Part shown: positions 8,106-58,478 of the stretch, piece after piece
Position numbering within the stretch: the first letter of the stretch is position 1
Layout: every line of letters starts with the position of its first letter
Translations under genes and position numbers: made by a program
Assembly (NCBI GenBank): GCA_965248455.1
Contig: OZ252105.1
Location: forward strand, 200,993-264,992
Source of the DNA: Dehalococcoidia bacterium
Lineage (GTDB): Bacteria; Chloroflexota; Dehalococcoidia; Lucifugimonadales; Australimonadaceae
Direction of reading: 5' to 3'
DNA: 64,000 nt
Notes under the pieces: model-generated
What the model was told of the DNA's origin: nothing
The model's database searches: none
What the model saw: the letters and a program-made list of their open reading frames with translations, nothing else

Positions 8106-8954
8106 TTACGTGACACGGGTCATTCGAACTGCGAAGTCGCGGAGATTCGGTGCGCTGGCGCGCGCCGTGTCGATGACCATTGCGAGCGCCCACCCCACAG
8201 CGCTCGCTGTCCATTCAGGTAGGGTAACCGACACGCCGAGGCCGGAGTGCGCAGGGGAGATGGGGTGGTCCGGCGCCCCGAAGAACGACTTTTTGATTGA
8301 GCGCTCATCAGGCACGGCTACTACCGGTCCGAACTCGAATGGTGGTGTGTACTCCCGCCGGAGGCTGGCGAGCAACTCTGCCTCGGTATGTCCCCCGAGC
8401 AATCCCTGGTCGAAGGCGATGAGCGCGTCTGCTTGCTCCTTCTGAGTAGTGTTAAACCAATTGAGCTCAGAAACGAGATCGCCAAGTGGGGATCGTGTCC
8501 TAGGGTCCAGGAAATGTGCCGTAACCTGGAACCCGGACAACTCGACGACCCCAAAGCGGCGGAGTGCGTCATCGAAACACTGAATCAACGCCGGCAGCGC
8601 CAAAGCTAGCTCCACCTCGCTTAGCCGCCGTTTCGATAGCGGCGCATACGCATAACCTACAAAACCTGGGGGCGGCGGGCTGCCTGACTCGACGACATCA
8701 CCTGTCGGATCATCCGCCAGTCCTACCTGCACCCATCCGAGCCGGGATGCGCCGGTTCCGGCGGTCAACTCCGCATCGTTCATATTCCAGAGCGACGAGC
8801 GGCGGTGAGGGTGGCGATTCGACGGCAGGGTGGACCAACCCATCAATTCAGCACGCGCGTTGAAAACGCTATAGAGGTCCTCCTCGTCGGAATCAATCAG
8901 GTTCGTGCCGGGGGCAAGTTGCCCGAAAGCCTCAACGAAAAGCACCGACGGCAT
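8106..8954 (-). CDS. hypothetical protein (282 aa), no family recognised
   Basis: Uninterrupted ORF with a strong AAGGAGGG RBS (revcomp of 8960-8970). By eye slightly less GC-rich than neighbours. Confidence 0.55.
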   Translation of the reverse strand: MPSVLFVEAFGQLAPGTNLIDSDEEDLYSVFNARAELMGWSTLPSNRHPHRRSSLWNMNDAELTAGTGASRLGWVQVGLADDPTGDVVESGSPPPPGFVGYAYAPLSKRRLSEVELALALPALIQCFDDALRRFGVVELSGFQVTAHFLDPRTRSPLGDLVSELNWFNTTQKEQADALIAFDQGLLGGHTEAELLASLRREYTPPFEFGPVVAVPDERSIKKSFFGAPDHPISPAHSGLGVSVTLPEWTASAVGWALAMVIDTARASAPNLRDFAVRMTRVT

Positions 8955-9096
8955 GACAACTGCCCTCCTTCAACCCGGAGACTGCCTTGGCAACACTCCC
9001 ACGCCTGACTATCTCATGTTTTCTCGAAATCGTGTTCGTTTCTGTTGCTATCCAACCTCTGGGCAACTCCTCGCTATCCGCACTTACCCTCCCAAG

Positions 9097-9129
9097 CCAG
9101 GGATGCGAGGTTCCCGCCTGTAAACAACG
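9097..9129 (+). repeat. solo module B
   Basis: ccagggatgcgaggttcccgcc... matches the B consensus. Confidence 0.7.
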
Positions 9130-9188
9130 TCCTTGGGAACTACAGCGGGCGTATCCTGCGCCAAGTCTGCGGCTATACTCCCGCAACC

Positions 9189-10175
9189 ATGGTCAGGGCA
9201 TCCAGGGCGGTATGGCGGTACCGGTGGGAGATTGCGCCGTTCCTTCTGGCCGGCGCAGCGCAGGCTGTCCCCTATTGGTTCATCGCTCTGCTCCACAATT
9301 TCGGTCTGCTCTCCTCTGCGAGGTGGGCTACGGGACGTTCAGGTTGGCAGGCGGCCTACCCGGGGGACGCAGTTTGGTTCCTGTCCGGCATCGTTGGATT
9401 CGCTCTGTTATTCGTTGTGTTACGACATGGCATCCGTCGGTTGGAGGCTCTGGGTCGCCCCGTTACGAAAGCGCTATGGGAGGCGTTGCTGTTGGCGCTG
9501 GGGGTGTCGCTGCTCGCCTATGCTGCGTGGCATGCCCTGACCGTATTCCTTGGGTTGGGTGTCTGGTGGAACGTTTACCCGTGGTTCTACTACCTTGTTC
9601 TTCTTTCGATCGTGGGGATCGTGGGGTGGGCGGTACGCACACTCTGGAGCAGGGGGGCAGCAACCGCGCTTTTCATAGTCATCGCCGCCATCATCGTCGC
9701 AGGCTCCGCTGCTCCTAGGATGTACACTGTGCGCTTGGAAGCCGAGGTGCTGTGGCTTGGCGCTTGGCTAACTATCTGGGCTATCTTCGCTGCTCAGCTG
9801 CTGCTCCTCCTACTCACGGGAGTGCTCGCCCACCATCTGCCATCCCAACCCGCGTGGCGGCAATGGCTGATGACGGGAGGACTCCTCACCACTGCAAGCG
9901 CCGTAAGGGTCGCCACTCTGGTACTACTGGAAGCGTTGGGGAGCACATCCCTTCCTTTCTGGTTCGGCTACGTCTGGGATCTGCTTGAGAGCGGCGACAC
10001 GCCTCTTCGTGTTCCTCCTGTTGGTGTTGTTGTGGCTACCAACCTGGCGCACGTCTATGCAGTCGCAGCACTCGCATTCGTGGCTTCGTTCGGATTCCAC
10101 ACGCTGCTTCGGAGGCGCCACTCCGCCGCCTCTGAAGCCGACCCCCCGCCTGCGCCGGCTAGCGAAGAGCGCTGA
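9189..10175 (+). CDS. hypothetical polytopic membrane protein
   Basis: Multiple long hydrophobic segments (FLLAGAAQAVPYWFIALL, LLALGVSLLAYAAW, ...). ATG 9189 was chosen because the upstream ORF part runs through repeat B. No clear RBS. Confidence 0.5.
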   Translation: MVRASRAVWRYRWEIAPFLLAGAAQAVPYWFIALLHNFGLLSSARWATGRSGWQAAYPGDAVWFLSGIVGFALLFVVLRHGIRRLEALGRPVTKALWEALLLALGVSLLAYAAWHALTVFLGLGVWWNVYPWFYYLVLLSIVGIVGWAVRTLWSRGAATALFIVIAAIIVAGSAAPRMYTVRLEAEVLWLGAWLTIWAIFAAQLLLLLLTGVLAHHLPSQPAWRQWLMTGGLLTTASAVRVATLVLLEALGSTSLPFWFGYVWDLLESGDTPLRVPPVGVVVATNLAHVYAVAALAFVASFGFHTLLRRRHSAASEADPPPAPASEER

Positions 10176-10573: not shown

Positions 10574-10585
10574 GAGAGGGGCCAG

Positions 10586-11407
10586 GTGACTGACAGACTT
10601 GCCGGGAAGGTTGCGATCGTAACGGGGGCAGGGTCGAGCGGGGCGGGAGTCGGCAACGGGAAGGCTGCGTCCATTCTGTTCGCTCGGGAGGGCGCGAGCG
10701 TCCTGCTGGTGGATCGTGAACTGGAGCGCGCGCAGGAGACGCTCGCGCTGATCGAGGCGGAGGGCGGCACAGCGTCGGCTATCGCGGGCGACGTTACGAG
10801 CGCGGCGGACTGCGAGAACATCGTGCGCGCCGTCGTCGAGCGGTACGGACGGCTCGACATACTGCACAACAACGTGGGCATCTCCACGCGCGCTAACGTG
10901 GTGGAGGTAACCGAGGAGCAGTGGGATCACATCATGGCGGTGAACGTCAAGAGCATCGTGCTGACCTCGAAGTACGCTATCCCTGAGATGAAGAAGAACG
11001 GCGGCGGGTCGATCATCAACCTTGCGTCCATTGCCGGGCTGCGGGCGAACAGCAGCGCTCCGTATACGGCGTCGAAAGCGGCAGTTATCGGCCTTACGAC
11101 GTCGATGGCGGGCGACCACGGAGGGGATGGCATACGGGTGAACTGCATCGCCCCGGGGCTGGTGTACACGCCGATGGTTGCGCCGCGCATGGATGACGAT
11201 CTGCGGCAGGTACGCAAGCGCGCCGCGCCGCTCGGCACGGAGGGCACCGCCTGGGACGTTGCATGGGCGGCGGTGTACCTGGCAAGCGACGAGGCTCGCT
11301 GGGTTACCGCCATCACGTTGCCGGTCGACGCGGGTCTGCTGGCGACCTCTCCCGTTACGTACAACAGACTCGGTCAGCAGCAGCACGGAGGCCCCGTCAC
11401 CGGATAG
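10586..11407 (+). CDS. SDR family oxidoreductase
   Basis: GKVAIVTGAGSSGAGVG glycine-rich loop and YTASKAAV catalytic motif. GTG start after GGAGAGGGG. Confidence 0.85.
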   Translation: MTDRLAGKVAIVTGAGSSGAGVGNGKAASILFAREGASVLLVDRELERAQETLALIEAEGGTASAIAGDVTSAADCENIVRAVVERYGRLDILHNNVGISTRANVVEVTEEQWDHIMAVNVKSIVLTSKYAIPEMKKNGGGSIINLASIAGLRANSSAPYTASKAAVIGLTTSMAGDHGGDGIRVNCIAPGLVYTPMVAPRMDDDLRQVRKRAAPLGTEGTAWDVAWAAVYLASDEARWVTAITLPVDAGLLATSPVTYNRLGQQQHGGPVTG

Positions 11408-11469
11408 CGGGCGTGTGGTACGCTCTCGCAGGGCTTGGCAGACTAGGCGCCCTATGCGCTGGAGGAGAC

Positions 11470-12561
11470 ATGAAAGCGGCTGTTCTGGTTGAAAGCAATG
11501 CACCACTCGTCATCACGGATGTCGAGCTGGACCCACCCAAGGCGCATGAGGTTCGCGTGCGCATCGCGGCGGCGGGCGTCTGCCGCAGCGACCTGCACTT
11601 CATGCGCGGCGAGGCGGTCATCGCGCGGCCTGCCGTGCTGGGCCACGAAGGCTCCGCCATCGTGGAGGAGGTGGGCGAAGGGGTAACGCGGGTAGCGCCC
11701 GGCGACCACGTCATCCTCTCGTTCGTTCCGTTCTGCGGGCATTGCAACTCCTGCCTGAGCGGCAGGGCGAACATCTGCGATACGCATCTCAAGACGGGCC
11801 CCAATATGTTCGACGGGACGCGCCGCCTCCACTGGAACGGGCAGGACGTGGCGCACATGGGCAAAGTCGCGTGCTTCGCGGAGCATGCCGTCGTCCCGGA
11901 GACGGGCTGCGTGAAGATATCGCCGGACTTTCCGCTTCCGCAGGCGGCGTTGATCGGGTGCAGCGTTACGACGGGCGTCGGCGCGGCGCTCTTCAACGCG
12001 AAGATCGAGCCCGGCAGCACCGTTGCGGTCATCGGCTGCGGCGGCGTGGGGCTGAACATCGTGCAGGGCGCACGGCTGGCCGGCGCGAGCAGGATCATCG
12101 CCGTTGACATCAACGACGCAGCGCTCGAGTTCGCCACGCGGTTCGGCGCCACCGACGCCGTGAACGCAAAGCAGACGGACGCACTGAAAGCGGTGCGCGA
12201 TCTGACCGACGGCGGCACGGATTACAGCTTCGAGTCGTTCGGCTCGTCGGAGACCGTAACGCTCGCGTTCGACTCGGCGCGCAAGGGCGGGACGGCGATC
12301 ATTGTGGGGCTTGCGGCTGTGGGAGACTACGCCAGCATCGATCCGGTGGCGCTCGTGCGGCAGGAGAAGACGCTCAAAGGCTCGTACTACGGCACCTCCC
12401 GCCCGGCGATCGACTTCCACCGGATGGTGGACCTGTACAACCGCGGGCAGATCGACGTCGATGGGTTGATCACGCGGACGTACACGCTCGATCAGATCAA
12501 TGAAGCCTATGATGAGTTGGGGCGCGGCGTCGTTGGGCGCGGCGTGATCACGTTCGGGTAG
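11470..12561 (+). CDS. zinc-dependent alcohol dehydrogenase family protein
   Basis: GVCRSDLH, GHEGSAIVEEVGEGV and GCGGVGL Rossmann motif. GGAGGAG RBS before ATG 11470. Confidence 0.85.
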   Translation: MKAAVLVESNAPLVITDVELDPPKAHEVRVRIAAAGVCRSDLHFMRGEAVIARPAVLGHEGSAIVEEVGEGVTRVAPGDHVILSFVPFCGHCNSCLSGRANICDTHLKTGPNMFDGTRRLHWNGQDVAHMGKVACFAEHAVVPETGCVKISPDFPLPQAALIGCSVTTGVGAALFNAKIEPGSTVAVIGCGGVGLNIVQGARLAGASRIIAVDINDAALEFATRFGATDAVNAKQTDALKAVRDLTDGGTDYSFESFGSSETVTLAFDSARKGGTAIIVGLAAVGDYASIDPVALVRQEKTLKGSYYGTSRPAIDFHRMVDLYNRGQIDVDGLITRTYTLDQINEAYDELGRGVVGRGVITFG

Positions 12562-12564
12562 GGC

Positions 12565-13038
12565 ATGACACACGTTACGCTGACAGTCAACGGCAAACGC
12601 CGCTCCGCAGAGGTCGAGGACCGCGACCTGCTGGTCGATCTGCTGCGCGAGAAGCTGCGCCTTACGGGAACGCACGTGGGCTGCGATACGAGTCAGTGCG
12701 GTGCGTGTACGGTGCTGGTCAACGGCGCGGCGGTGAAGTCGTGCTCGATGTTCGCGGTGCAGGCGGAGGGCGCGCGCGTCACGACGATAGAGGGCCTCGC
12801 GAAAGGCGAGACGCTCCATCCCATACAGCAGGCGTTCCATGAGCAGCACGGCTTACAGTGCGGCTTCTGCACTCCGGGGATGGTGATGATGCTGCACGAG
12901 TTCCTGAGGCGAAACCCCGACCCCTCCGAGCACGAGGTACGCTCCGCTCTGAGCGGGAACATGTGCCGCTGCACCGGCTACCAGAACATCGTCGCTTCCG
13001 CGCTGCATGCCGCGAAGACGATGCAGGCGCGAACGTGA
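12565..13038 (+). CDS. (2Fe-2S)-binding small subunit of the xanthine dehydrogenase/CoxS family
   Basis: [12 protein letters not shown] and CGFCTPG...CRCTGY cluster motifs. Confidence 0.85.
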
Positions 13039-13910
13039 TACCCGCGACGTTTGCCTATCACGCGCCCAAGTCGCTTCGCGAGGCGGTGCGTCTGCTGCGC
13101 GAGCACGAGGGCGAGGCGCGGGTCGTCTCCGGCGGGATGAGCCTGATCCCGGCGATGAAGCTCCGGCTCGTTCAGCCCGAGCATCTCGTCGATATCGGGA
13201 GGCTGGACGAGCTCTCCTATGTCCAGCGGGCGGGCGATGGTTTACGCATCGGCGCTGCGACTACCTACCGAGACATCGAGAAGTCGCGCATCGTGGAGAG
13301 TGTTGCGCCGTTGCTCACGGAGACCGTCCGTGTGGTGGGCGACCTGCAGGTGCGGAACAAGGGCACCATCGGTGGCGCGGCGGCGCATGCCGACCCCGCG
13401 GCTGACGTTCCTGCTGCGCTGCTTGCGCTGGAGGCGAGGCTTCGCGTCGTGGGCGGGCGGCGGTCGCGCGTCATCCCCGCGCATCGATTCTTCGTCGATG
13501 CTTACGAGACGGTCCTGGGGCCGACCGAAGTGCTGACGGAGGTGGAGATTCCCAAGATGCCTCCGCGCACCGGGTGGGCCTACGTGAAATTCGCGAACAA
13601 GGCGTCGCGGTTCGCCATCGTGGGCGTTGCTGCGTTGCTGACGCTCGACCGCAAGGGCGGCGTTACGCGAGCACGGATAGCCGTCACCGGCGCAGGGCCG
13701 AGGCCGGTTCGCGCCAGGGTGAGCGAGCGACTGCTGACGGGACGGTCGGCATCGAGCGCCGCTATCGAGGCCGCCGGGGATAGAGCCTCACGCGGGATGG
13801 AGTTCCTCTCGGACATACATGGTTCCGAGGAGTACCGCGAGCATCTGACGGGAGTCATCACGAAGCGTGCGCTCGAAACGGCAGCGGAGCGCGCCGGCAT
13901 CGCGTTGTAG
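13035..13910 (+). CDS. FAD-binding medium subunit of the xanthine dehydrogenase/CoxM family
   Basis: [28 protein letters not shown] motifs. GTG 13035 overlaps the coxS-like stop (GTGA). Confidence 0.8.
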
Positions 13911-13921
13911 GGAGGGGACTT

Positions 13922-14311
13922 ATGGCTATGACGGCAGAGCGCGTGATGAAGATTCTGGCGCAATCACGGGCGAAATCGGCGGAGCTTGGTTTGCTGACTA
14001 CGACGGCGGTCGTTGACGAGAACGGCCTGCTGCAAGGTCTGCTGCGGATGGAAGGCGCTCGCTTCACGACGGTGGAGATCGCGCAAGGCAAGGCGAGAGG
14101 GTGCGCCGGCGCTCGCCGCCCCACCGTGGAGATGGCGGAACGCGCGCAGCGCCCCGTTTTCATGTATCAGGCCATCCACCAGGGCTTCATCTTCGCGCAG
14201 GGCGGCGTGCCGATCATGGACGGCGAAGCGTTCGTTGGGGCGGTTGGCGTCTCAGGCGCAACCGACCCCAACGACGACGAGGCCATCGCTTACGCGGGCC
14301 TCGCCGATTAG
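13922..14311 (+). CDS. GlcG/HbpS-like (DUF336) heme-binding protein
   Basis: 129 aa. ...AQGGVPIMDGEAFVGAVGVSGATDPNDDEAIA is typical of the GlcG family. Confidence 0.75.
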   Translation: MAMTAERVMKILAQSRAKSAELGLLTTTAVVDENGLLQGLLRMEGARFTTVEIAQGKARGCAGARRPTVEMAERAQRPVFMYQAIHQGFIFAQGGVPIMDGEAFVGAVGVSGATDPNDDEAIAYAGLAD

Positions 14312-14342
14312 CGTCGGATAGCAGCGGCTTTCGCGGGCATCA

Positions 14343-14450
14343 CGCGGCATGGAATGCATCGGGGATATCCACGGCTCGGAGGAGTACACACGAGCATCTG
14401 CACCCGCGTCATCACTCAGTGCGCGTTGGAAGAGGCCTTCCGTGGATTGG
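14343..14450 (+). pseudogene. degenerate fragment of a CoxM-like 3' end
   Basis: Reads [15 protein letters not shown], then a 1-nt indel, versus [29 protein letters not shown] at the real coxM-like end (13790-13880). Aligned by hand at nucleotide level. Confidence 0.5.
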
Positions 14451-14633
14451 GCGCCATTCAGATGCCTGCTCAGGTAACACGGTAGCGATCACAGGTGTTT
14501 CGTGATCCGCAAACTCAACCACGAACGCCTTGCCAGACGCATGAACATGCACGATTGTCCCAACCTCCCCAGCCTGTAAACCGTCCTGTGGAAGGGCAGT
14601 TGTAAGAGTGATGATGTCATGTTCCTTGAGCAT
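14412..14633 (-). CDS. DUF4926 domain protein
   Basis: MLKEHDIITLTTALPQDGLQAGEVGTIVHVHASGKAFVVEF resembles DUF4926. GGGAGG RBS before ATG 14633. Confidence 0.6.
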   Translation of the reverse strand: MLKEHDIITLTTALPQDGLQAGEVGTIVHVHASGKAFVVEFADHETPVIATVLPEQASEWRPIHGRPLPTRTE

Positions 14634-14728
14634 CTCGCCTCCCAAGCGGGTAAGCCGTAATCAGCCGTGGACTAGTGTTCCCTGTGTCTACGACCGGTTA
14701 ACGTGGGCCTGTCTCGCATTCGGAAGCC

Positions 14729-15340
14729 TCAACCCCGGTTGTCCCACTTGTCCCAGTGCGTTACCTCGGAGGAGGGTCGGCGGGTCGTTGGGCCGTAGTT
14801 ATGCCCATCCTGCGGCCAGCCCAGGGGGATCATGGCGGCGGTTACCCAATCGTCCGGCAGGCCGATGGCCTCGCGGATCTGGGGCTCGAAACCTCGGCGC
14901 ACGCGCGTCGTCAGCACGCTGCCGAGCCCGTAAGCTCGCGCGGCGAGCAGCATGTTCTGCACGGCGGGGTAGATGGACGCGCCGTGATGCACATCCGTTC
15001 CGGGGTGGTGCGTCACGGCCAGTATCCACACAGGAACGTCCATGACGTGCTGCGCGAGGTAGTCCGCCGACGCAGCGGCGCGCTCCTCGGAGGGAGTCGA
15101 CGCTTCGCCGTGGTTCGGGCGGGCGGTCGCCGGGTAGTGCTCGGCGATGATGCGCTTGGTGGCCTCATCCTTGATGACGACGAACCCCCACTGCTGCGAG
15201 TTCCCGCCGTTGGGGGCGCGTATGCCTGCGTCGATCACCTTGCGGACGAGGTCATCCGGGACAGGGTCGGGTTTCAGGTAGCGCAGCGCTCGCTGCGTGT
15301 ACATGGCATCGAACAGACCGATATCTTCACTCATTGTCAC
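14729..15340 (-). CDS. nitroreductase family protein
   Basis: RALRYLKPDPVPDDLVRKVIDAGIRAPNGGNSQQW is a typical nitroreductase N-terminus. Confidence 0.85.
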   Translation of the reverse strand: MTMSEDIGLFDAMYTQRALRYLKPDPVPDDLVRKVIDAGIRAPNGGNSQQWGFVVIKDEATKRIIAEHYPATARPNHGEASTPSEERAAASADYLAQHVMDVPVWILAVTHHPGTDVHHGASIYPAVQNMLLAARAYGLGSVLTTRVRRGFEPQIREAIGLPDDWVTAAMIPLGWPQDGHNYGPTTRRPSSEVTHWDKWDNRG

Positions 15341-15429
15341 CGCACCTCGTTAGTATGCGTCTTGCGCGTTGGAGTAAACTTACCACGGTAACGGCTCCTA
15401 CGCTTACGCTGCCCACAACTGGAGGAAGC

Positions 15430-16662
15430 ATGCTGACCACTGATATGAATGACCGCTTGACGCAGGTTGGCCCGGGGACGCCGATGGGCGGATTGATGCG
15501 CCGCTATTGGCATCCGATAGCCGCCAGCGTAGAGCTCACCGCCGACAACCCGACGAAAGAGATTCGCCTGCTCGGCGAGGACCTGGTGCTGTACCGCGAC
15601 GCCAAGGGCACGGTCGGATGCATCGAGCCGTCCTGCGCGCATCGCAAGGCGAACCTCTCCTACGGCATACCTGAGGAGAACGGCATCCGCTGTGCGTACC
15701 ACGGCTGGATATTCAACGAGACCGGCCAGTGCATGGACCAGCCCTCGGAGCCGGAAGGTTCGAAGTTCAAGGACAAGGTGCGCATCAAAGCGTATCCCGT
15801 CGAGGAGAAGGGCGGCGTCATCCACGTCTACATGGGCCCCACGCCGGTTCCCGTTCTGCCGAACTGGGACCTCTATCAGTGGGAGGGCGTCGAGCGCTCC
15901 ACCTACGCGGTGATGCTTCCGTGCAACTGGCTGCAGTGCCACGAGAACTCGCTGGACCCCGTCCACTTCCAGTGGCTGCACCGCTACTACGGCATGTGGC
16001 GAGCGGCCAAGATCATGGGAGAGGAGACCCGCGAGGAGTTCGACCGGATATCGGCGGCTCGGGGCAGGGCGCACGTCAAGATCGGATTCGACCGCTTCGA
16101 GTACGGCATCATCAAGCGTCGGATGCTGGAAGGCGAGGATGAGAACAGCGAATGGTGGCGCATCGGCCACCCGATCCTGTTCCCGTACACGTTGCGGGTA
16201 GGGCAGGAGCGATGGTTCGAGTTCCAGCACCGCGTGCCCGTGGACGACACGCACACGCTCCATTTCGGCTACACGATCCGCGTCCCGGATCCGGGCGAGA
16301 CGATCGAACCTGCGCCGATGGTTCACGACCCCAGGCCCGCTTTCTTCGATAACGGCCGCGTGAAAGACGACTGGGTGGTGGGGCAGGATCAGCTCGCGTG
16401 GATCATCCAGGGCCCGCGGATGGACCGGAGCACCGAGGCGCTCGGCGTTACGGACATCGGGCTTATCATGTTCCGCAACCTGCTGAACGAGCAGATCCAG
16501 ATCGTGGAGGACGGCGGCGATCCGCTGAACGTTCACCGTCAGGAGAAGGAGATCATCGAGCTGCCCACGGAACATGCGTACTTCCCCGGCTACGAAGTTA
16601 CGGGAGGGCCGTTCGCGGGCTTGCAGCCCGGCCCTGTGGAGCTCGAACGCTCGCTCCTCTGA
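15430..16662 (+). CDS. Rieske oxygenase alpha subunit, paralog 2 (subfamily A)
   Basis: CAHRK...CAYHGW and NSLDPVHFQWLH. GGAGGA RBS before ATG 15430. Close to paralog 1. Confidence 0.9.
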   Translation: MLTTDMNDRLTQVGPGTPMGGLMRRYWHPIAASVELTADNPTKEIRLLGEDLVLYRDAKGTVGCIEPSCAHRKANLSYGIPEENGIRCAYHGWIFNETGQCMDQPSEPEGSKFKDKVRIKAYPVEEKGGVIHVYMGPTPVPVLPNWDLYQWEGVERSTYAVMLPCNWLQCHENSLDPVHFQWLHRYYGMWRAAKIMGEETREEFDRISAARGRAHVKIGFDRFEYGIIKRRMLEGEDENSEWWRIGHPILFPYTLRVGQERWFEFQHRVPVDDTHTLHFGYTIRVPDPGETIEPAPMVHDPRPAFFDNGRVKDDWVVGQDQLAWIIQGPRMDRSTEALGVTDIGLIMFRNLLNEQIQIVEDGGDPLNVHRQEKEIIELPTEHAYFPGYEVTGGPFAGLQPGPVELERSLL

Positions 16663-16728: not shown

Positions 16729-16750
16729 AGGACGACCGGGCATGAACCGG

Positions 16751-17176
16751 TCACGGCAATTCAAGGGCGACGCGCTCATTGACAGCGTCAAAGGTACACC
16801 GGAATTGGTTAAGGATGTCGCGGCCTAGCAGCGATGGCAGTTGCGCGTCTGTCTTGCCTGCAATGAGATCGATAGCAATCTCGATTTCACGGAAACCGCC
16901 AAGGGCAGCAGTATCGTGAAATCGGAGGATAGCCTCCGTCTTCTTGGACCGTGTCTCACCGCCCACGCCGTTCGCGGTCTGGTAGCGTCCCTTGACTGAT
17001 GACATCTGGATACCCATCCTGCCCACGTCATAGGGTAGTAGCGAAGTACCATCTGCTCCCGTGTCCACGAGGAATTCTATATCTGCGTGAAGTCTTAGAG
17101 CAGGAAGGTAGACCTGAGCTAGGATGTAAGGCGCAGGCGGGGTATCGTCGTGCTGGTAGTACCCGTGTATCGCCAC
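16751..17176 (-). CDS. retropepsin-like (clan AA) aspartic protease, single lobe, copy 1
   Basis: FLVDTGADGTSL catalytic DTGA and LLGRDILNQF. GTG start lies 1 nt after the upstream stop. Confidence 0.75.
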   Translation of the reverse strand: MAIHGYYQHDDTPPAPYILAQVYLPALRLHADIEFLVDTGADGTSLLPYDVGRMGIQMSSVKGRYQTANGVGGETRSKKTEAILRFHDTAALGGFREIEIAIDLIAGKTDAQLPSLLGRDILNQFRCTFDAVNERVALELP

Positions 17177-17177
17177 G

Positions 17178-17435
17178 TTACAGAATCAAGCGCCTCGGTT
17201 TCTTGGACGCGTATCTGAGGACGGCGTGGTTCTTGGGCACTCCCTTGTTATCCATCTCCTTCAAGACGCCTTTCAATGTCTTGTGGGTAGCCACAATCGT
17301 GCCCTTGTAGACTGCCACGTAGCTGTCAGGGTACTTCTTGCGCACCTGTGGCCAGATAGAGCTGAGATAGTCGCCGTCTTCACGGAACTGCGTGTGCGTC
17401 GCCAGATCAAAGCTCGGTATGCTCTCGGTAGTCAT
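17178..17435 (-). CDS. small partner protein (DUF5678-like), copy 1
   Basis: 85 aa. ...KKYPDSYVAVYKGTIVATHKTLKGVLKEM... AGGAG RBS. Homologous by eye to 48206-48502. Confidence 0.55.
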   Translation of the reverse strand: MTTESIPSFDLATHTQFREDGDYLSSIWPQVRKKYPDSYVAVYKGTIVATHKTLKGVLKEMDNKGVPKNHAVLRYASKKPRRLIL

Positions 17436-17592
17436 GGTCAGTGACTCCTAATCCTTCTCTCTTCGTCGTATGACTTCCCCATAGGAGAATTCATTTAGCA
17501 TGATAGCAAACGCGGACGCTCGGGACGCAGCGGGTTGTTGTTGCGGAGTGGGTTTCGGTGATGCGGAGGTTGATCCATGACGAGTGCTCTGT

Positions 17593-17650: not shown

Positions 17651-17881
17651 ATGTTAACGGTGAACGTGCACGAAGCAAAGACCCACTTGTCACGGTTGCT
17701 GGCGAAAGTCGAGGCTGGCGAGAACGTCATCATCGCCCGCAGCGGCAAGCCGGTTGCGCGGTTGGTGGGATACCAGCGCCAGGGTAAACCGCAGTTCGGC
17801 TCCTGGAAGGGCCGGATATCGCTTGACGATAGCTTCTTCGACCCACTCCCGGAGGAGGAGTTGGCCGCTTGGGAGAGATGA
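17651..17881 (+). CDS. type II antitoxin, Phd/YefM family
   Basis: MLTVNVHEAKTHLSRLLAKVEAGENVIIARSGKPVARLV is the canonical Phd N-terminus. Confidence 0.8.
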   Translation: MLTVNVHEAKTHLSRLLAKVEAGENVIIARSGKPVARLVGYQRQGKPQFGSWKGRISLDDSFFDPLPEEELAAWER

Positions 17882-17884
17882 GCA

Positions 17885-18271
17885 TTGCGGCTGCTGCTCG
17901 ATACTCACGCGTTCATATGGTGGCTTGCCGGAAGCGAACGGCTGCCGGTCATCGCCCGCCGCGCCATCGGTGACGAATCGAACGACATACTGATCAGCGC
18001 AGCGTCTGCCTGGGAGATTGCCACCAAGCATCGTCTCGGCAAGCTTCCGGGAGCCGAAGCCCTTGCGTACGACGTTGCCGGAGCCATTGCCGACGAGGGC
18101 TTTGAAGAGTTGCCCATCACCATTGAAGACGCTGCACACGCGGGAAGATTGCCCGGCTCCCATCGCGACCCCTTCGACCGGATGCTCATTGCGCAAGCGC
18201 TGAGGCGCGACCTGACGCTCATATCGAGCGAATCGTTGTTCGACCAGTACAGCGTCAGCCGTATCTGGTGA
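17885..18271 (+). CDS. vapC: type II toxin, PIN-domain VapC
   Basis: LLLDTHAFIWW...SAASAWEIATK...DPFDRMLIAQA PIN acidic residues. TTG start. Confidence 0.85.
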   Translation: MRLLLDTHAFIWWLAGSERLPVIARRAIGDESNDILISAASAWEIATKHRLGKLPGAEALAYDVAGAIADEGFEELPITIEDAAHAGRLPGSHRDPFDRMLIAQALRRDLTLISSESLFDQYSVSRIW

Positions 18272-18344
18272 ATCGACGGGCGAACCCTGACGGGTCTGCA
18301 CATTCATTGCCCACGAGGGACGCCCCTACGACAAATCGCCGCTA

Positions 18345-18374
18345 CTAGGAGACGCCCTGGCCGGAGTAGGCTAC
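18345..18374 (-). repeat. degenerate duplicate of the Gfo/Idh/MocA (copy 2) 3' end
   Basis: 24 of 30 nt identical to 18780-18809, including a 19-nt perfect run. Reads VAYSGQGVS* versus the real IAYSGQGVG*. Confidence 0.75.
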
Positions 18375-18761
18375 TTATTGTTCGGCTGACTGTTGGTAAC
18401 GAGAGATGATGCTCGTAACGCCGGGGTACACAGAGACTTGTTCTTTGCCGTCCCACCAGATATACGCTTCCAGCTCGCTGCGGTTGAGTTTCACTTTTCC
18501 GCCAGCATGTACTAGCACCACCTTGTGAACGTTGAAACTCTCCTCGCTGTTGTAATCAAAAAGCCGTTCCGCTTTGTATGCCCGCAATCCCAACTCTTCG
18601 CTGAGTTCGCGGCAAGCGGCGGTAAGGGCAGCCTCGCCTCGTTCGATGCCGCCGCCGGGCAATGAGTAATGCTGTCTGCCCTTATCGAGTACCAACAGGT
18701 ACTTACCATCTCTGATTACAAGGGCAGTGGCGCGTTGGCGTTTAGCAACACCTTTACTCAT
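18375..18761 (-). CDS. NUDIX hydrolase (copy 1)
   Basis: Nudix box GGGIERGEAALTAACRELSEELGL. Visibly AT-richer than its surroundings. Confidence 0.85.
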   Translation of the reverse strand: MSKGVAKRQRATALVIRDGKYLLVLDKGRQHYSLPGGGIERGEAALTAACRELSEELGLRAYKAERLFDYNSEESFNVHKVVLVHAGGKVKLNRSELEAYIWWDGKEQVSVYPGVTSIISRYQQSAEQ

Positions 18762-18779
18762 GCCAGACGGACTGCACGG

Positions 18780-20006
18780 CTAACCCACACCCTGGCCGGA
18801 GTAGGCTATCTGGTGCTCCATGAAAACTTCTCGGCGCTCCTCGGAGGATTTGATGATGCCGAGGATGACCTCCTGCGTGGCCTTGCCCCAGTGCGCGTCG
18901 TGGATGCGGACGGGCGTGTCTTCTCGGGTGGCGCGGCACATCTCGTCGACCTCTACGGAGCAGTAGCGCCGGTTGTAGCCGTCGCCCGCGGACACCTCCA
19001 GCTCCTCGTTGCCGTCGTTGCCGTAGATGGTCAGGCCCGTTGGCGTCTGGCGCATGTCGCCGTGCTCGCACGAGACGAGCGTGAGGCCGAAGAACGCATG
19101 CCGCCTGTCCGGCGAGACCGGGTGGTCGATGGGGCGGTTGAGGGAGCCTCCGTAGCGAGTCGTGTCCTTGTACGCCTCCTCGGCGTCGGCGTCGGGGAAG
19201 GCGGCGATGCGCTTCCGGGAACTGACGTGCAGATCCGGGTTCATCGTCGTGCCCTGGAGCGTATAACCGAACGTCAGCTCGGCGCTGTTGAAGTGGCCGT
19301 AGCCGTCGTAAGTGATGGTTGCGGTGTGCCCGTCCACGAAGTCGAGGAACGCGGTGAAGCTGCCGTCGATGGGGCGGTTCGTGTCGACGATGTTGGTCCT
19401 GGCGCGCACGGAGCGCACCATGCCGCCGCCGACCATCCGTGCGATGTCCACCTGGATAGGCCCCTGGCGGCGGACGATGCTGCCGCCCCGGTGCTGCATC
19501 AGCTCCTCCTTGGCGCGCGGACGGTAGATCCAGTCGCTGTAGAACATCGTGTGAATCATCACGACGTTCCCAAGCCTGCCACTGTTGGCGATCTCCGCCA
19601 TCTTCAGAATCGGCAAGTCGAGGCTCTGGGAGTGGCCTACGATCACGCGCGTGCCGTTCCGCTCCGTCGCTTCGATGATGGAATCGCACTCGTCCAGCGT
19701 CAGCCCCATCGGCTTGTCGAGGATGACCTGCTTGCCGCGCTCCGCCGCCATGACGGTATGCGAGGCGTGCATCTCGTCCGGCGTCATCACGTAGACGACG
19801 TCCACCTCGGGGTCGGCGCACAGGCCCTCTGCGTCATCGTAGGCGCGCCCGCCGAAATCGCGCTCGAACCGTTCGCGGGCTTCCGGTCGCGGGTCGGCTG
19901 CCGCCACGATGCGGGCGTTAGGGTTCGCGCGCAGTTCAGGAATCATGTTCATCGCGCCTGCGCCCAGGCCGATGATGCCGAAATTGAGGGGCGTTGAGTT
20001 GGTCAT
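18780..20006 (-). CDS. Gfo/Idh/MocA family oxidoreductase (copy 2)
   Basis: FGIIGLGAGAMN Rossmann motif and ILDKPMGL. ATG 20006 after GGGAG. Lies 90 nt downstream of Rieske paralog 3. Confidence 0.85.
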   Translation of the reverse strand: MTNSTPLNFGIIGLGAGAMNMIPELRANPNARIVAAADPRPEARERFERDFGGRAYDDAEGLCADPEVDVVYVMTPDEMHASHTVMAAERGKQVILDKPMGLTLDECDSIIEATERNGTRVIVGHSQSLDLPILKMAEIANSGRLGNVVMIHTMFYSDWIYRPRAKEELMQHRGGSIVRRQGPIQVDIARMVGGGMVRSVRARTNIVDTNRPIDGSFTAFLDFVDGHTATITYDGYGHFNSAELTFGYTLQGTTMNPDLHVSSRKRIAAFPDADAEEAYKDTTRYGGSLNRPIDHPVSPDRRHAFFGLTLVSCEHGDMRQTPTGLTIYGNDGNEELEVSAGDGYNRRYCSVEVDEMCRATREDTPVRIHDAHWGKATQEVILGIIKSSEERREVFMEHQIAYSGQGVG

Positions 20007-20096
20007 GGTTGCTCCCTGGTAGACGCTTGAAGTGGAACGGACGAAGCGGGAGCGGGCATCCGCCGCCCCCTGCTTCCAACGCAACGCATAGGCGAA

Positions 20097-37859: not shown

Positions 37860-38783
37860 ATGCCCATCACGCTCATGGCGGATCATGAATACGCCGCCGA
37901 ATACCTCGCGAACGGCTCTATCAAGGTCGAAGGATTCGACGTCGAGACGGTCTGGCCGGAGGGAGGCTCAGCGTCCGTCTACGCCAAACTGTTCACGGAA
38001 CCTCCCTACGATGTGATGGTGGTGCCCATCACGAACTTCCTCATCGCGGTTGACCTCGGCAGGCCGTTGGCGGGCATCCCCGTGTTCCCGGACGTGTCGT
38101 TTGCGCACACCGGCGCGCAGGTGAATACGAACGCCGGTATCACGAGCCCCAAGGATCTCGAAGGCAAGCGCGTCGGTGTTCGCGGGTGGGGCTTCAACCC
38201 TGGGACATGGCTGCGAGGCGCGCTCGCGGATGTCTACGGCCTCGACGCTACACGGGTGCATTGGGTGGAGGCGGAGCCCAACTCACTGATGAACGCGGAC
38301 TACCCCCGCGATTCCCGGTTCAGCGTCTCCAAGGGCGGCGACCAGATCGCGGAGCTGGAGAGCGGCGCGTTGGACGCGGTGCTGTTCGACCGCTCCGGCC
38401 CGCCGCTCGCAGGAAACCGCGCCCGGCTGTTCGACGACCCTTTGGCCGCAGCGCTGGAATATCACGCGCAGACGAGCGTGCTGCCGGTGAACGTGATGCT
38501 GGTGGCGAAGCGGGATGTGCTCGATGCGAACCCCGGCCTCGCACAGGCGGTCGTCGAGGCGTCGGACAAAGCGCGTGAAGCGTATTACGCCCACGCTTCC
38601 GACGACGATGAGCATATGGGCTTGCCCATCGGCTGGCTGCGGCAGCACGGCCTGTTCCCGCACGAGAACGGGTTGGAGCGCAACCGCAACGCCATCGAGA
38701 CCATCGTCCGCTACGCGGCAGACCTCGGCCTCATCAGCCGTCGCTTTACGCCGGAGGAGCTGTTCTTCGACGGCGTGCGTTAG
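37860..38783 (+). CDS. 4,5-dihydroxyphthalate decarboxylase-like (PBP-fold) protein, copy 1
   Basis: IPVFPDVSFAHTG…GITSPKDLEGKRVGV pattern is shared with copy 2 (57360-58337) and with my recollection of PhtD/Pht5-type decarboxylases. Confidence 0.65.
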   Translation: MPITLMADHEYAAEYLANGSIKVEGFDVETVWPEGGSASVYAKLFTEPPYDVMVVPITNFLIAVDLGRPLAGIPVFPDVSFAHTGAQVNTNAGITSPKDLEGKRVGVRGWGFNPGTWLRGALADVYGLDATRVHWVEAEPNSLMNADYPRDSRFSVSKGGDQIAELESGALDAVLFDRSGPPLAGNRARLFDDPLAAALEYHAQTSVLPVNVMLVAKRDVLDANPGLAQAVVEASDKAREAYYAHASDDDEHMGLPIGWLRQHGLFPHENGLERNRNAIETIVRYAADLGLISRRFTPEELFFDGVR

Positions 38784-38882
38784 GAGTGGCACGGGCGATA
38801 TATAGCAAAGTTAGGGAGTTTATCAAAATTCGATAACTTTCCTAACCTTACTAACTTCCATAACTTCGCTAACTTTGCTATA
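38739..38882 (+). repeat. direct repeat L: last 14 codons of the decarboxylase-like gene + TAG + AT-rich palindrome with 5 x 9-nt TAACTTNNC units
   Basis: tatagcaaagttag (38801-38814) pairs with ctaactttgctata (38869-38882). 9-mers at 38834-38878. Matches 40048-40164. Confidence 0.8.
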
Positions 38883-38892
38883 AACTGGATGC

Positions 38893-40092
38893 ATGGATCC
38901 TATACGTAACCCGTACGCGCCTGGCGCGGGAACACAGCCTCCGGAACTGGCAGGCCGCCAGGAGATACGCGAAGCCGCGCGTATCGCGCTGGAACGGATT
39001 CGGAGGGGACGTCCCAACAAGAGCATGATGATGGTGGGCTTGCGGGGCGTGGGGAAAACGGTGTTGCTCGACCGGGTGAGGCTGGACGCAGAGGCCGCCG
39101 GGATCGTCGCCTTGCGTGTGGAAGCCGCTGATGACCGCTCGCTCCCATCGATGCTTGCGCCGGAATTGCGCGCAGCCTTGTTGCGTCTGTCGATGAAGGA
39201 TGCCGCCAGGGAGTTAGCGCAACGCGCTTTGAGAGGTCTCGCGGGGTTCGTCGGCGCGCTCAGAGTGAGGTACCACGACATCGAGGTCGGCCTGGACTTG
39301 GAACCGGAACCGGGGTTGGCGGACAACGGGGACTTGGAGATTGACCTGCAGAGCCTGTTCGAAGCGGTAGGGGCTGCCGCAAAGGCGGATGGAACCTGCA
39401 TAACACTCTTCGTCGACGAACTCCAGTATGTGAAGGTGAACGAACTCGCGGCGCTGATTACCGCATTGCACCGGATGGCGCAGCGGCAGCTCCCTGTCAC
39501 TATGGTTGGGGCGGGCTTGCCCCAGGTGCGGGGCCGCATGGGGAATGCGAAATCCTACGCAGAGCGGCTTTTCGATTTCCCCGAAATCGGGCCGTTATCC
39601 CCCCAAGATGCCAAACTGGCCATCGTCAAGCCCGCTGAGGACGAGGGCGTGACGATAGAGGAGCCCGCCCTCGACGCCATCGTTGCCAGAACGGGGTGCT
39701 ACCCTTACTTCCTACAAGAGTGGGGAAAACATCTGTGGGATGCCGCCGAAAGTTCCCCTATCACCATCGCCAGTGTGGAGACTGCCTCTGCGCAGGCCAT
39801 AGCCGATCTGGATGCGAGCTTCTTCATGGTCAGGTTCGACCGGCTGACCCAGTCAGAGAAGAGATACCTCCGAGCGATGGCCAGCCTTGGCGATGGGATC
39901 CACCGCTCCGGTGACATCGCCCAAGCGATGGGCCGCAGCGTCAGTTCCCTCGCGCCCACTCGCAGCCAGCTCATCAACAAGGGCATGGTCTGGAGTCCGA
40001 GCCATGGAGATACCGCCTTCACCGTCCCCATGTTCGACGAGTTCATGCGGCGCATCATGCCGGAGGAACGGCTCTTCGATGGCGCTGAATAG
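38893..40092 (+). CDS. AAA+ ATPase with C-terminal winged-helix-like domain
   Basis: Walker A GLRGVGKT and Walker B LFVDELQ. The last 14 aa RRIMPEERLFDGAE resemble RRFTPEELFFDGVR at the end of the preceding gene. Confidence 0.75.
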   Translation: MDPIRNPYAPGAGTQPPELAGRQEIREAARIALERIRRGRPNKSMMMVGLRGVGKTVLLDRVRLDAEAAGIVALRVEAADDRSLPSMLAPELRAALLRLSMKDAARELAQRALRGLAGFVGALRVRYHDIEVGLDLEPEPGLADNGDLEIDLQSLFEAVGAAAKADGTCITLFVDELQYVKVNELAALITALHRMAQRQLPVTMVGAGLPQVRGRMGNAKSYAERLFDFPEIGPLSPQDAKLAIVKPAEDEGVTIEEPALDAIVARTGCYPYFLQEWGKHLWDAAESSPITIASVETASAQAIADLDASFFMVRFDRLTQSEKRYLRAMASLGDGIHRSGDIAQAMGRSVSSLAPTRSQLINKGMVWSPSHGDTAFTVPMFDEFMRRIMPEERLFDGAE

Positions 40093-40164
40093 GAGTGGCG
40101 CAGTACATTTATAGTAAAGTTAGGGAAGTTAGCAAAATTCGATAAACTACCTAACTTTGCTATA
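40048..40164 (+). repeat. direct repeat R: copy of the decarboxylase-like 3' end + TAG + AT-rich palindrome with 2 x 9-nt units
   Basis: 32 of 45 coding nt identical to 38739-38783 by hand. TAGGAGTGGC is shared. Palindrome arms at 40110-40123 and 40151-40164. 27 nt (3 units) shorter than copy L. Confidence 0.8.
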
Positions 40165-56277: not shown

Positions 56278-56305
56278 GTCAGCGTCGTCCTGATATGGTG
56301 CTGAT

Positions 56306-56839
56306 ATGGAGATTGACTTGGCGAACGGCTACGTGCTCCGGCCTTGGGACACCGCGTGGCGGGACGGCGACCAGGGGCGTTTCGTCACGCTCGCGAACGA
56401 CTACGACATCTGGATAAACCTCCGCGACCGCTTCCCCCACCCATACACCCGCTCAGACGCCGAGGACTGGGTTGCCTTTCAATCGGGCCGGGACCCGACC
56501 ACGGTATTCGCGGTCTGCGACGCCGAAGGGCCGATCGGCGCCATCGGCCTGGAAACGCGCGAGGACGACTACCGGCACTCCGCCGAGATCGGCTACTGGC
56601 TGGGCAAGCCGTTCTGGGGACGCGGGATCATCACCTGCGCCGCAAAGGCCGTGACAGCCTACGGCTTCCAGACGCTGGGACTCATGCGCATCGACGCGCC
56701 TGTCAGGGCATCAAACGACGCCTCGGCACGCGTGCTGGAGAAGGCGGGCTACCAACGCGAAGGGCTGCTCCGCAAGGTCGCGCTGAAGGAAGGCGAGCCC
56801 GTGGACTACTTGCTCTTCGCCATCCTGCGAGAGGACTGA
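56306..56839 (+). CDS. GNAT N-acetyltransferase (RimJ/RimL-like)
   Basis: EIGYWLGKPFWGRGIITCA…NDASARVLEKAGYQREG. Confidence 0.8.
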   Translation: MEIDLANGYVLRPWDTAWRDGDQGRFVTLANDYDIWINLRDRFPHPYTRSDAEDWVAFQSGRDPTTVFAVCDAEGPIGAIGLETREDDYRHSAEIGYWLGKPFWGRGIITCAAKAVTAYGFQTLGLMRIDAPVRASNDASARVLEKAGYQREGLLRKVALKEGEPVDYLLFAILRED

Positions 56840-56840
56840 A

Positions 56841-57353: not shown

Positions 57354-57359
57354 ACAACC

Positions 57360-58337: not shown

Positions 58338-58380
58338 GCAGGGCAGCCCCCCGCCCGGTGTAGGCGCGGCCCCCTGTCCG

Positions 58381-58478
58381 GTGTAGGGGCCGTTCGCGAA
58401 CGGCCCTAACGTTATGCCACCCCAACGTACTTCCCAAATCAACGACAACTGCCCATTACGCCGTAACCTCGCTGATTT
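58381..58478 (-). repeat. module D repeat (reverse orientation)
   Basis: gtgtaggggccgttcgcgaacggccctaacg…caactgcccattacgcc… matches the revcomp of 7718-7829. Confidence 0.8.

Follow-up and report, generated by a model that had tools for sequence, protein, structure and literature searches.

Phage 21 and e14, which insert into icd of E. coli, and ICESt1, ICESt3 and the CIMEs, which lie at the 3' end of the Streptococcus thermophilus gene fda, are familiar examples of elements that reside at the end of a gene. A different type of event, insertion with long target duplication, was described by Nobusato et al. (2000; as cited in PMC2853133), and Furuta, Abe and Kobayashi (2010, NAR; PMC2853133) described the class for restriction-modification genes. 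In H. influenzae, 46-bp duplications extend into gene 3' ends by 15 bp and 2 bp without an integrase (PMC2853133). [quoted passage not shown] The class with long target duplications has been known since 2000, mainly from restriction-modification genes so far, and its mechanism is unsolved. Here, we find that a NUDIX gene is a strain-variable single-gene cassette in the last 30 bp of a Gfo/Idh/MocA oxidoreductase gene of one species of SAR202 (Dehalococcoidia), an uncultured bacterium of marine type, and that its insertion was accompanied by a long direct duplication of the target, 45-47 bp in the least-modified strains.

The window, i.e. the whole 64,000-nucleotide stretch of DNA that was analysed, holds the host gene, the cassette and a copy of the host gene end on its minus strand (Table 1). 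The host gene has orthologues in 21 of 21 congeners (83-87% amino acid identity), and the JGI name on its close homologues is phthalate 4,5-cis-dihydrodiol dehydrogenase. It ends in ATAGCCTACTCCGGCCAGGGTGTGGGTTAG (18809-18780), and a copy of this end, GTAGCCTACTCCGGCCAGGGCGTCTCCTAG (18374-18345), begins immediately 3' of the NUDIX TAA. The two share 24 of 30 bases, including an exact run of 19 nt, and an in-frame TAG terminates each. The repeat had been noticed in the first-pass annotation and is real, with one correction: the spacing, given there as 433 bp, is 435 nt from start to start, and the DNA separating the copies is 405 nt long (a 387-nt ORF plus the 18-nt leader). Counts of the shared 19-mer rule out a chance repeat as the origin of the copies. 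When up to three mismatches are allowed, it occurs 3 times in the window compared with 0.01 expected, and the whole 2.8-Mb genome has it at only two sites, i.e. the two copies themselves, which also disposes of an unrelated repeat of wide occurrence, an alternative raised at the outset. Public metagenome contigs contain a single exact match, unrelated and from human gut, which we read as chance. The vapBC pair is the downstream neighbour in every strain of the species and is missing from the site in congeners.

Table 1. Features of the NUDIX locus and of similar structures in the window
Feature	Position	Strand	Remarks
CoxM-like FAD subunit, 3' end	13785-13910	+	
GlcG/HbpS-like gene	13922-14311	+	
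Frameshifted relic of CoxM end	~14322-14450	+	
VapB (Phd/YefM) and VapC (PIN) toxin-antitoxin pair	17651-18271	+	Pfam
Native intergenic DNA, from original gene end to convergent vapC	18272-18344	-	Collinear with empty-site strains
Relic VAYSGQGVS*, the native 3' end of the host gene	18345-18374	-	Same sequence ends the gene in L066 and L079
Right copy of target duplication (first 23 nt of relic)	18352-18374	-	
NUDIX hydrolase cassette gene, 128 aa	18375-18761	-	PF00293, E 8.6e-13, 48.9 bits
Cassette leader, 18 nt	18762-18779	-	Not in empty site
GGGTTAG, seven non-native bases	18780-18786	-	Last codon (Gly, not Ser) and stop
Left copy of duplicated target, 23 nt, within working gene	18787-18809	-	21/23 identical to right copy
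Gfo/Idh/MocA oxidoreductase, host gene	18780-20006	-	Pfam PF01408 and PF22725
AAA+ ATPase gene between 120-nt repeats	38734-40162	+	38734-38853 vs 40043-40162, 75%
Further in-window case	56170-58593	-	

The cassette gene is AT-richer than its host, as first described (GC 0.53 compared with 0.654), and the translation of 18375-18761 contains an intact Nudix box (GX5EX7REUXEEXGU), GGIERGEAALTAACRELSEELGL. No match to this gene is found in the 12-kb orthologous loci of congeners. None of the 21 congeners has it, nor do the sampled members of the family, and the best match within the genus is 30% identical. This absence and the empty-site strains described below rule out that the NUDIX gene is ancestral at its position, an outcome that the first-pass annotation had named as fatal to its reading. 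The nearest homologues (83-84% identity) are located elsewhere, in an ispD-ispF-cysS-x-NUDIX-glcD context. Homology to them is confined to the borders of the ORF and stops at its TAA, and no gene-end relics were found around the homologues in the cysS/glcD context.

Comparison of strain-level metagenome contigs of one species (14 haplotypes) reveals the history of the site; the source metagenomes are ENA assemblies ERZ25069112, ERZ25069191, ERZ25071132, ERZ25074053, ERZ26167216 and ERZ28763718. Two strains, L066 and L079, have an empty site, in which the gene ends with GTAGCCTACTCCGGCCA(A/G)GGCGTCTCCTAG and is followed by the DNA that adjoins the relic in this genome; this end is the same as the relic apart from single-base strain differences. 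Because the empty-site strains end the gene with this sequence, and continue into the same downstream DNA, the 30-nt relic is the original end of the host gene. The order proposed earlier, i.e. true end, cassette and relic end, thus reflects a real insertion, and these strains are the relatives with an empty site for which a search had been advised. The relic is decaying in other strains: in L065 a CAG has become TAG, and in L070 the TAG stop reads CAG.

The empty site aligns with both copies of the repeats, which range from 23 to 47 nt. Specifically, the two least-modified NUDIX contigs (L070 and L073) carry a repeat of 45-47 nt (identity 42/45 and 46/47) that spans -30 to +15 around the stop, and both copies have the native sequence. 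In these contigs the leader is 116-118 nt long in place of 18 nt, with similarity in the final ~12 nt, and the 116-nt leader is not present as a repeat family in this genome. The NUDIX haplotype of this genome is represented by seven contigs and has the 23-nt repeat. In other strains nearly the same site is occupied by a GIY-YIG nuclease gene (205 aa; PF01541, E 4.9e-8), a second and unrelated cassette that is not present in this genome. It has a duplication of its own, 46-47 nt long in one contig (L078), and a 31-nt repeat in two others (L069 and L076). Inserts measure 412-700 nt and contain one ORF, either NUDIX or GIY-YIG. Beyond the gene end, the two cassettes have no arm sequence in common, and the borders of their repeats differ by 8 nt (-30 vs -38). 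In congeners, the inserts at this site have no gene-end relics behind them, and further indels at this hot spot come without any duplication. Neither a hairpin nor a terminator reaches significance at the target (z = 0.22), and no structure was detected there that would account for pausing or for a hot spot.

The left copy in this genome retains 23 bp, after which seven new bases form the last codon and the stop, where empty-site strains have CTCCTAG. As a result, the host gene is intact, and the cassette follows on its strand after 18 nt. The new stop falls at exactly the native codon position, a coincidence of ~2-5%. The differences between the copies had been taken as synonymous and thus as the mark of a diverged second copy that once functioned, a reading that does not survive: in conspecific L059 and L060 both copies are identical over 23 nt, so the ATA/GTA and GGT/GGC differences arose later, as SNPs in the strain studied here. 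The junction that follows the duplication, GGGTTAGC, is common to the NUDIX haplotype of this genome and to the GIY-YIG haplotypes L069 and L076, and among 57 family genomes this variant end occurs in this genome only. The 7-19 nt past the common 23 nt (GGGTTAGCCG.GC.G), found in both NUDIX and GIY-YIG haplotypes, resemble the gene end of some congeners (GTG GAG TAG CAG). Because the bases after the duplication are common to two cassettes and congener-like, the working end of this genome, GTGGGTTAG, may possibly be an imported allelic end. The proposal that the insert carries a replacement end is therefore only partly upheld: in L070 and L073 both copies are native, i.e. the target was duplicated, and an imported end is possible for the haplotype of this genome.

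Similar structures recur in the window and beyond. The same topology had been proposed for the GlcG gene and the AAA+ ATPase gene, and we confirm the repeats of both (76% and 75% identity). In the GlcG case, the repeats (13785-13835 and 14337-14387) extend to ~100 nt when gapped. At diagnostic sites, the congener consensus is matched 15 times by the relic and 7 times by the working end of CoxM; of the two, it is the functional end that seems the more foreign. Congeners have either an empty gap or a DUF4926 pair at the CoxM site, never GlcG. A long foreign segment in CoxM was considered as well, since identity to congeners falls from ~13176, but an outgroup lineage has the same drop; this part of CoxM is thus simply fast-evolving, and we withdrew the argument. 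At thrS it is the relic that looks foreign, and these opposite polarities fit recombination between diverged alleles. In the further case in the window, the last 33 nt of a minus-strand gene (58554-59900), together with 7 nt past its stop, recur 2.4 kb downstream, at 56170-56209 (37/40).

A genome-wide search for other 3'-end duplications, also advised in the first-pass annotation, returned 12 fragment-like copies of 3' ends lying downstream of their gene (score ≥30), compared with 6 for 3' ends upstream, 7 for 5' ends upstream and 4 for 5' ends downstream at the same threshold. These counts are lower bounds, as the gene caller was crude (2171 calls, with the NUDIX gene itself missed), and the genome holds at least 12 structures of the type gene end, insert, relic end. 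Their repeats are 23 to ~200 nt long, the inserts are often low-GC, and none has an integrase. Across 13 pairs, mismatches are distributed 45/61/89 over the three codon positions, a significant enrichment of the third position (P = 2e-4) that is suggestive only, because an in-situ duplication would also raise the third-position share to some degree if one copy were under constraint.

The locus was reported to lack an integrase, and this holds in a wider search: there is no recombinase, integrase or transposase in or beside the site in the 14 strain haplotypes, no integrase in 15 congener loci, and no recombinase in the congeners' inserts at this site. The genome has four tyrosine recombinase genes (PF00589), at 30 kb, 425 kb, 629 kb and 1.19 Mb; the closest is ~190 kb off, and none is near the cassettes of the window. 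An integrase-mediated element at a gene 3' end is not supported, as no recombinase gene lies in or beside the site in these haplotypes and loci. Regarding a diverged end of the attP type, the haplotypes that look primary are native in both copies, and the variant GGGTTAG belongs to the haplotype of this genome. An integron gene cassette does not fit either, given that the relic abuts the NUDIX TAA, that the target has no significant fold and that there is no integrase. Nor does a DNA transposon or IS, because the termini of the insert (AGTCGTGTCAG... and ...GAACAATAA) do not form inverted repeats, there is no transposase and the duplication measures 45-47 bp. The locus does present the features used by Furuta et al. 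(2010), i.e. a relative with an empty site that aligns to both copies, a duplication longer than 30 bp (in L070/L073 and L078; the haplotype of this genome keeps 23 bp) and an insert below 20 kb without a mobility gene. Restriction-modification cargo, which was a criterion of the original screen and not of the mechanism, is replaced here by NUDIX.

On balance, these sequence comparisons incline us towards an insertion with long target duplication that would have arisen during repair or replication and been followed by host recombination between strains. Foreign DNA would have been captured by an illegitimate event, associated with repair or replication, that copied the target stretch again, and we infer that no dedicated recombinase was involved. 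A template switch that left the target and returned to it upstream of the point of departure would give exactly this product. Cassettes were later probably spread, trimmed and swapped among co-occurring strains by host homologous recombination, whose two regions of homology would be the conserved gene and, opposite it, the relic or the downstream DNA; where one side alone matches, homology-facilitated illegitimate recombination would serve. A cassette swap would explain the left junction common to the NUDIX haplotype of this genome and one GIY-YIG haplotype. What speaks against random illegitimate events is that two unrelated cassettes use the same ~40-bp target with near-equal duplications (45-47 and 46-47 bp), and this agreement in target and length hints at a site- or length-specific process. 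The position of the new stop in this genome, the lack of a fold at the target and the indels without duplication also count against this reading.

Other explanations can accommodate part of these observations. The mosaic copies, with 23 or 31 native nt and then GGGTTAGC in the left copy only, would be explained by Campbell-type, RecA-dependent traffic, in which a circle made of one ~46-bp copy of the gene end and the cassette loops out and reaches another cell, both repeats being restored when it crosses over once, by homology, with that cell's copy of the gene end. The position of the crossover would set which copy seems native and which foreign, so that both polarities are covered (a foreign working end in CoxM and a foreign-looking relic in thrS), and the process needs no recombinase gene, none having been found. 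We consider it somewhat unlikely, as homology of 23-47 bp is at or below the range of efficient RecA crossover, the origin of the first repeat-flanked copy is left unexplained, and the different borders (-30 and -38) call for a separate founding event for each cassette. Site-specific recombination by an integrase encoded elsewhere, with the cassettes as integrase-less satellites like CIMEs and the ~46-bp repeats as the identity block common to attP and attB, would account for the rebuilding of a working end that keeps the gene intact. It also agrees with the use of one site by two cassettes, 45-47 bp being the size of att blocks in islands at tRNA 3' ends (PMC2853133, Table 2). We nonetheless deem this unlikely: the strain haplotypes and congener loci show no integrase at the site, none of the few tyrosine recombinase genes is near the window's cassettes, and the two cassettes lack a common arm sequence. 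Their repeat borders, 8 nt apart, and the variable length of the repeats across the genome also count against it.

Quite unlikely, in our judgement, is a trans-acting SAR202 gene-capture process, through an enzyme or a repair pathway, that would cut or switch ~46 bp apart and place promoterless single genes into rebuilt gene ends. If it existed, accessory genes could be acquired in an integron-like manner without integrase or attC, and the ~46-bp signature of H. influenzae could reflect a widespread mechanism. Free-standing GIY-YIG homing genes are found between conserved genes in phages, and the occupation of the very same site by a GIY-YIG gene in other strains would suit a homing endonuclease that cuts the empty Gfo/Idh/MocA end, has its own gene copied in by repair and occasionally lets the break capture other DNA, such as NUDIX. 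We hold this to be highly improbable, given that homing through double-strand-break repair normally proceeds without a 46-bp target duplication, that the many other relic sites of the genome have no such nuclease, and that this genome lacks the GIY-YIG gene in question.

The insertion with long target duplication favoured here would be a natural illustration of single accessory genes being acquired and exchanged, in a lineage that is abundant and uncultured, without the classical machinery of mobile elements. The site is available empty, as two primary products and in derived forms. It adds to the class an ordinary cargo, recurrence at one ~40-bp target with equal-sized duplications, and a dozen scars within a single small genome; the three points combined make it a good place for working out the mechanism. 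For annotation, short copies of gene ends behind small ORFs call for caution, as they are insertion scars and not attachment sites.

Compared with known systems, the order of gene end, element and displaced end copy, with the gene still functional, is shared with phage 21, e14, ICESt1 and ICESt3. By contrast, those elements are kilobases long, have a tyrosine integrase of their own or rely on one, and use defined att sites, and their replacement end is the element's own, whereas in the primary product here both copies are target sequence. Neisseria minimal mobile elements and integron cassettes are similar in that single promoterless genes are swapped at a fixed spot. The former, however, move by double homologous crossover and leave no duplication, unlike here, and the latter require IntI and attC hairpins, neither of which is found here. 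Displacement at Rhs, CDI and T6SS loci (PMC5361080) resembles our case in its one-sided entry by homology behind a conserved gene part, in the older end pushed downstream as an orphan and in its strain-variable arrays. In those systems it is a conserved internal core that is repeated, and the piece displaced is a variable toxin tip together with the immunity gene (PMC5361080), whereas here it is an ordinary metabolic gene whose final 23-47 bp are repeated. The closest likeness is to the class with long target duplications, in which a short foreign unit, often low-GC, lies between direct copies of a unique target stretch, tens to hundreds of bp long, that may overlap a gene 3' end; each copy corresponds to another strain's empty site, and there is no transposase or integrase. 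The present locus departs from that class in its cargo (NUDIX, GIY-YIG, GlcG and others instead of restriction-modification genes), in the use of nearly one target by two cargoes, in the later remodelling of the left copy, and in its host, an uncultured SAR202 lineage with at least 12 such scars in 2.8 Mb.

The end of the Gfo/Idh/MocA oxidoreductase gene (the host gene) is repeated behind the NUDIX gene that follows it, with 24 of 30 positions identical and a 19-nt exact run, as the first-pass annotation had described. That annotation placed 433 nt between the copies; the intervening DNA measures 405 nt and the spacing 435 nt. The 19-mer, for which 0.01 occurrences are expected in the window, is found at these two places only in the 2.8-Mb genome, which argues against a widespread unrelated repeat. 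The protein encoded between the copies has a NUDIX domain whose Nudix box is complete, and the GC of its ORF is 0.53 vs 0.654 in the host gene.

Positions of features in the window and, where an identifier is given, in strains (L) or elsewhere in this genome (G000)
Feature	Location	Strand	Remarks
Host gene	18780-20006	minus	3' end ATA GCC TAC TCC GGC CAG GGT GTG GGT TAG
NUDIX ORF	18761-18375	minus	128 codons; 18-nt leader between host gene and ORF
Relic of host gene end	18374-18345	minus	directly 3' of NUDIX TAA; GTA GCC TAC TCC GGC CAG GGC GTC TCC TAG
Additional 12 bases	18729-18755		four codons (GVAK) near NUDIX start, vs L070 allele
Rieske-host gene gap	20007-20096		90 nt only
vapBC pair	17651-18271	plus
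DUF5678/retropepsin-like pair	16739-17564		strain-variable; about 97 nt replace 826 nt where absent
Inverted five-gene block	11458-16656
SDR gene	about 10577-11431
CoxM-nitroreductase gap	14412-14645
DUF4160/DUF2442 pair	L078 5630-5992; L079 4932-5511		between Rieske gene and host gene
GIY-YIG gene	L076 5788-6405; L078 3508-4125; L069 about 8700-9400		205 aa, Cys-rich tail
238-aa gene	L065 14303-15019		additional, internal repeats, between CoxM and GlcG
thrS repeat	G000 C1:1315622-1318712		outside window; 119-nt copy of thrS 3' end, 1.2 kb downstream
Repeats beside recombinase gene	G000 C1:424757-430828		two direct repeats of 62 nt, separated by 5.4 kb

A protein-collection search with NUDIX, the host protein, GlcG, and VapC yields 13 metagenome contigs of the same or a very close species (host protein identity of 96-98%), and alignment of the host gene-to-vapC interval in these and in this genome resolves five haplotypes.

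Haplotypes at the junction behind the host gene (positions relative to its stop)
Haplotype	Members	Cargo	Structure
E	L066, L079	none	gene end ...CAG GTAGCCTACTCCGGCCA(A/G)GGCGTCTCCTAG, then (T/C)AGC..GGCGATTTGTCGTAGGGG..., then vapC
N1	L070, L073	NUDIX	native end through stop +15 nt, 116-118-nt leader, NUDIX, native sequence again from -30
N2	this genome, L059, L060, L065, L067, L068, L072	NUDIX	left copy = first 23 nt only, then GGGTTAG, 18-nt leader, NUDIX
Y2	L078	205-aa GIY-YIG gene	46-47-nt duplication, -38 to about +9
Y1	L069, L076	GIY-YIG gene	31 nt of left copy, then GGGTTAGC(C/A)G.GC.G as in N2

Haplotype E supplies the empty site that bears out the first-pass proposal of an insertion, and its gene end and downstream DNA equal the relic and the DNA behind it. 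On these alignments, the relic is the original end of the host gene and the event is an insertion with target duplication, the direct duplication spanning 45-47 nt in N1 (identity 46/47 and 42/45). Two unrelated cassettes have made use of this one site, with separate junctions. As expected of dead DNA, the relic decays—i.e. CAG has become TAG in L065 and the stop has become CAG in L070. The first-pass argument that synonymous differences betray an imported replacement end is invalid for the NUDIX cassette: the copies in L059 and L060 share 23 identical bases, and the ATA/GTA and GGT/GGC differences are therefore later SNPs of this genome. The GIY-YIG nuclease gene could be a free-standing homing endonuclease; its L069 version has lost internal segments and acquired a premature stop.

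A host gene orthologue is present in each of the 21 genus genomes (83-87% aa identity), and most of these keep a conserved row of DinB-like, Rieske oxygenase, Gfo/Idh/MocA, zinc-ADH, CoxS-like, CoxM-like, nitroreductase, and second Rieske genes. The NUDIX gene, vapBC pair, and retropepsin pair occur at this site in no congener locus, which speaks against NUDIX being ancestral here; its best match reaches 49% identity in an order sample (301 genomes, including genus and family) and 30% within the genus. In congeners, the host gene is followed by some 100 nt, by a GNAT gene, or by a gene for a large lipoprotein with RCC1 repeats, and neither a gene-end copy nor an integrase was found in this DNA or these inserts. 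The host gene 3' end is also a rearrangement border, because the block of zinc-ADH, CoxS-like, CoxM-like, nitroreductase, and Rieske genes is inverted in this species relative to all congeners keeping the row, with borders at this 3' end and at the SDR gene; the inversion is also present in strains L065 and L066.

NUDIX homologues with 83-84% identity sit elsewhere, in a conserved neighborhood (ispD, ispF, cysS, variable gene, NUDIX, glcD-like) where their GC is 0.53-0.55 within DNA of 0.63-0.65 and where no gene-end relics surround them. Nucleotide homology to these copies runs from about codon 7 and ends at the TAA, and the moved unit is therefore essentially one ORF plus a short leader. Homologues of other gene context also deviate in the first six codons.

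Other indels at this hot spot, namely the retropepsin pair, the DUF4160/DUF2442 pair, and the L065 238-aa gene, show no duplication at all, and homology ends at gene borders (for DUF4160/DUF2442, exactly at the flanking stop and start codons). They look like cassette exchange via flanking homology.

The GlcG and AAA+ ATPase parallels drawn in the first-pass annotation are real. In the CoxM/GlcG case, 15 diagnostic sites agree with the congener consensus in the frameshifted relic and 7 in the working end, and another lineage (L077) has the plain arrangement of CoxM then GlcG. At thrS, an essential gene, the working end is congener-like inside the repeat (11 vs 1 sites), most differences between it and the relic fall on third codon positions, and the congener G014 likewise has the first "insert" gene behind thrS. 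Pooled over 13 pairs, mismatches at codon positions 1/2/3 number 45/61/89. This mixed foreign/native polarity across sites agrees with recombination between diverged alleles differing by a cassette, and not with a single enzyme of one polarity. In L065, the CoxM relic is interrupted by an inserted REP-like element, a GC-rich hairpin. Six congeners (loci L025-L027, L031, L033, and L038) have in the CoxM-nitroreductase gap a DUF4926 gene with a ~95-aa partner, a toxin-antitoxin-like pair; nine have nothing there, and this genome keeps the DUF4926 gene alone.

Genome-wide, the terminal 150 nt of each of 2078 called genes served as queries against the 6 kb on either side and against the reverse strands, and we counted gene-end-restricted copies (score of at least 30, tandem paralogues removed). 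Other 3'-end duplications do exist, with 12 copies downstream and 6 upstream, while 5' ends recur upstream in 7 cases and downstream in 4. Further cases, the Gfo/NUDIX pair among them, fall below score 30, and hpnD, with a 192-nt repeat, was initially sorted with the paralogues. Repeat lengths range from 23 to about 200 nt, and the repeats usually run through the stop codon and a few nt further; inserts (0.4-3 kb, GC often 4-11 points under the host gene) encode one IS5 transposase besides orphan or membrane proteins. No integrase was found in the surveyed inserts, and none of the genome's four PF00589 genes is close to the window's gene-end-copy sites. A tyrosine-recombinase gene adjoins the 62-nt repeat pair, which may mark a true island borne by an integrase; it could be contrasted, within this genome, with the cases that lack one. 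TAG is the most frequent stop genome-wide (48% of 1700 confident calls), and the context TAGG occurs in 8/11 relic-bearing genes vs 16% genome-wide; a ribosome-binding site overlapping the stop may account for this excess.

Taken together, the sequences show that DNA was inserted with duplication of the target, that the host gene stayed intact, and that strains differ at the site, with no recombinase close by. We infer that the founding events were illegitimate captures in which 45-47 bp of the target were copied a second time; such a duplication would result if, during replication or repair, a template switch departed from the target at +9 to +15 and rejoined it at -30 to -38. Later spread, trimming, and swapping would have proceeded via host homologous recombination, one-sided where needed. 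N2 of this genome would arise most simply if a Y1-type chromosome had received the NUDIX cassette by recombination, or vice versa, which would explain the left junction common to both. Three observations sit poorly with this reading: size and position are almost the same for the two founding duplications, N2 and Y1 have their stop back at the same codon, and no fold marking a pause site was found at the target. Appreciable probability therefore remains for a trans-acting site-specific process, Campbell-type circles, or a hot spot created by a nuclease.

Among known systems, integrons and transposons were rejected, as their defining features are absent. The icd (phage 21/e14) and fda (ICESt/CIME) insertions share the topology but depend on integrases, whereas integrases were searched for here and not found. 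For later swapping, the best analogue is Rhs/T6SS displacement by homology-facilitated illegitimate recombination (PMC5361080). The closest match overall is insertion with long target duplication, defined from strains with vs without restriction-modification genes and including, in H. influenzae, 46-bp duplications that overlap gene 3' ends with no integrase (PMC2853133); the structure agrees, while the cargo differs. No new kind of element is required, and the NUDIX cassette is a well-resolved member of a known, unexplained class, whose unusual feature worth pursuing is that two cargoes use one target with a duplication of about 46 bp each.
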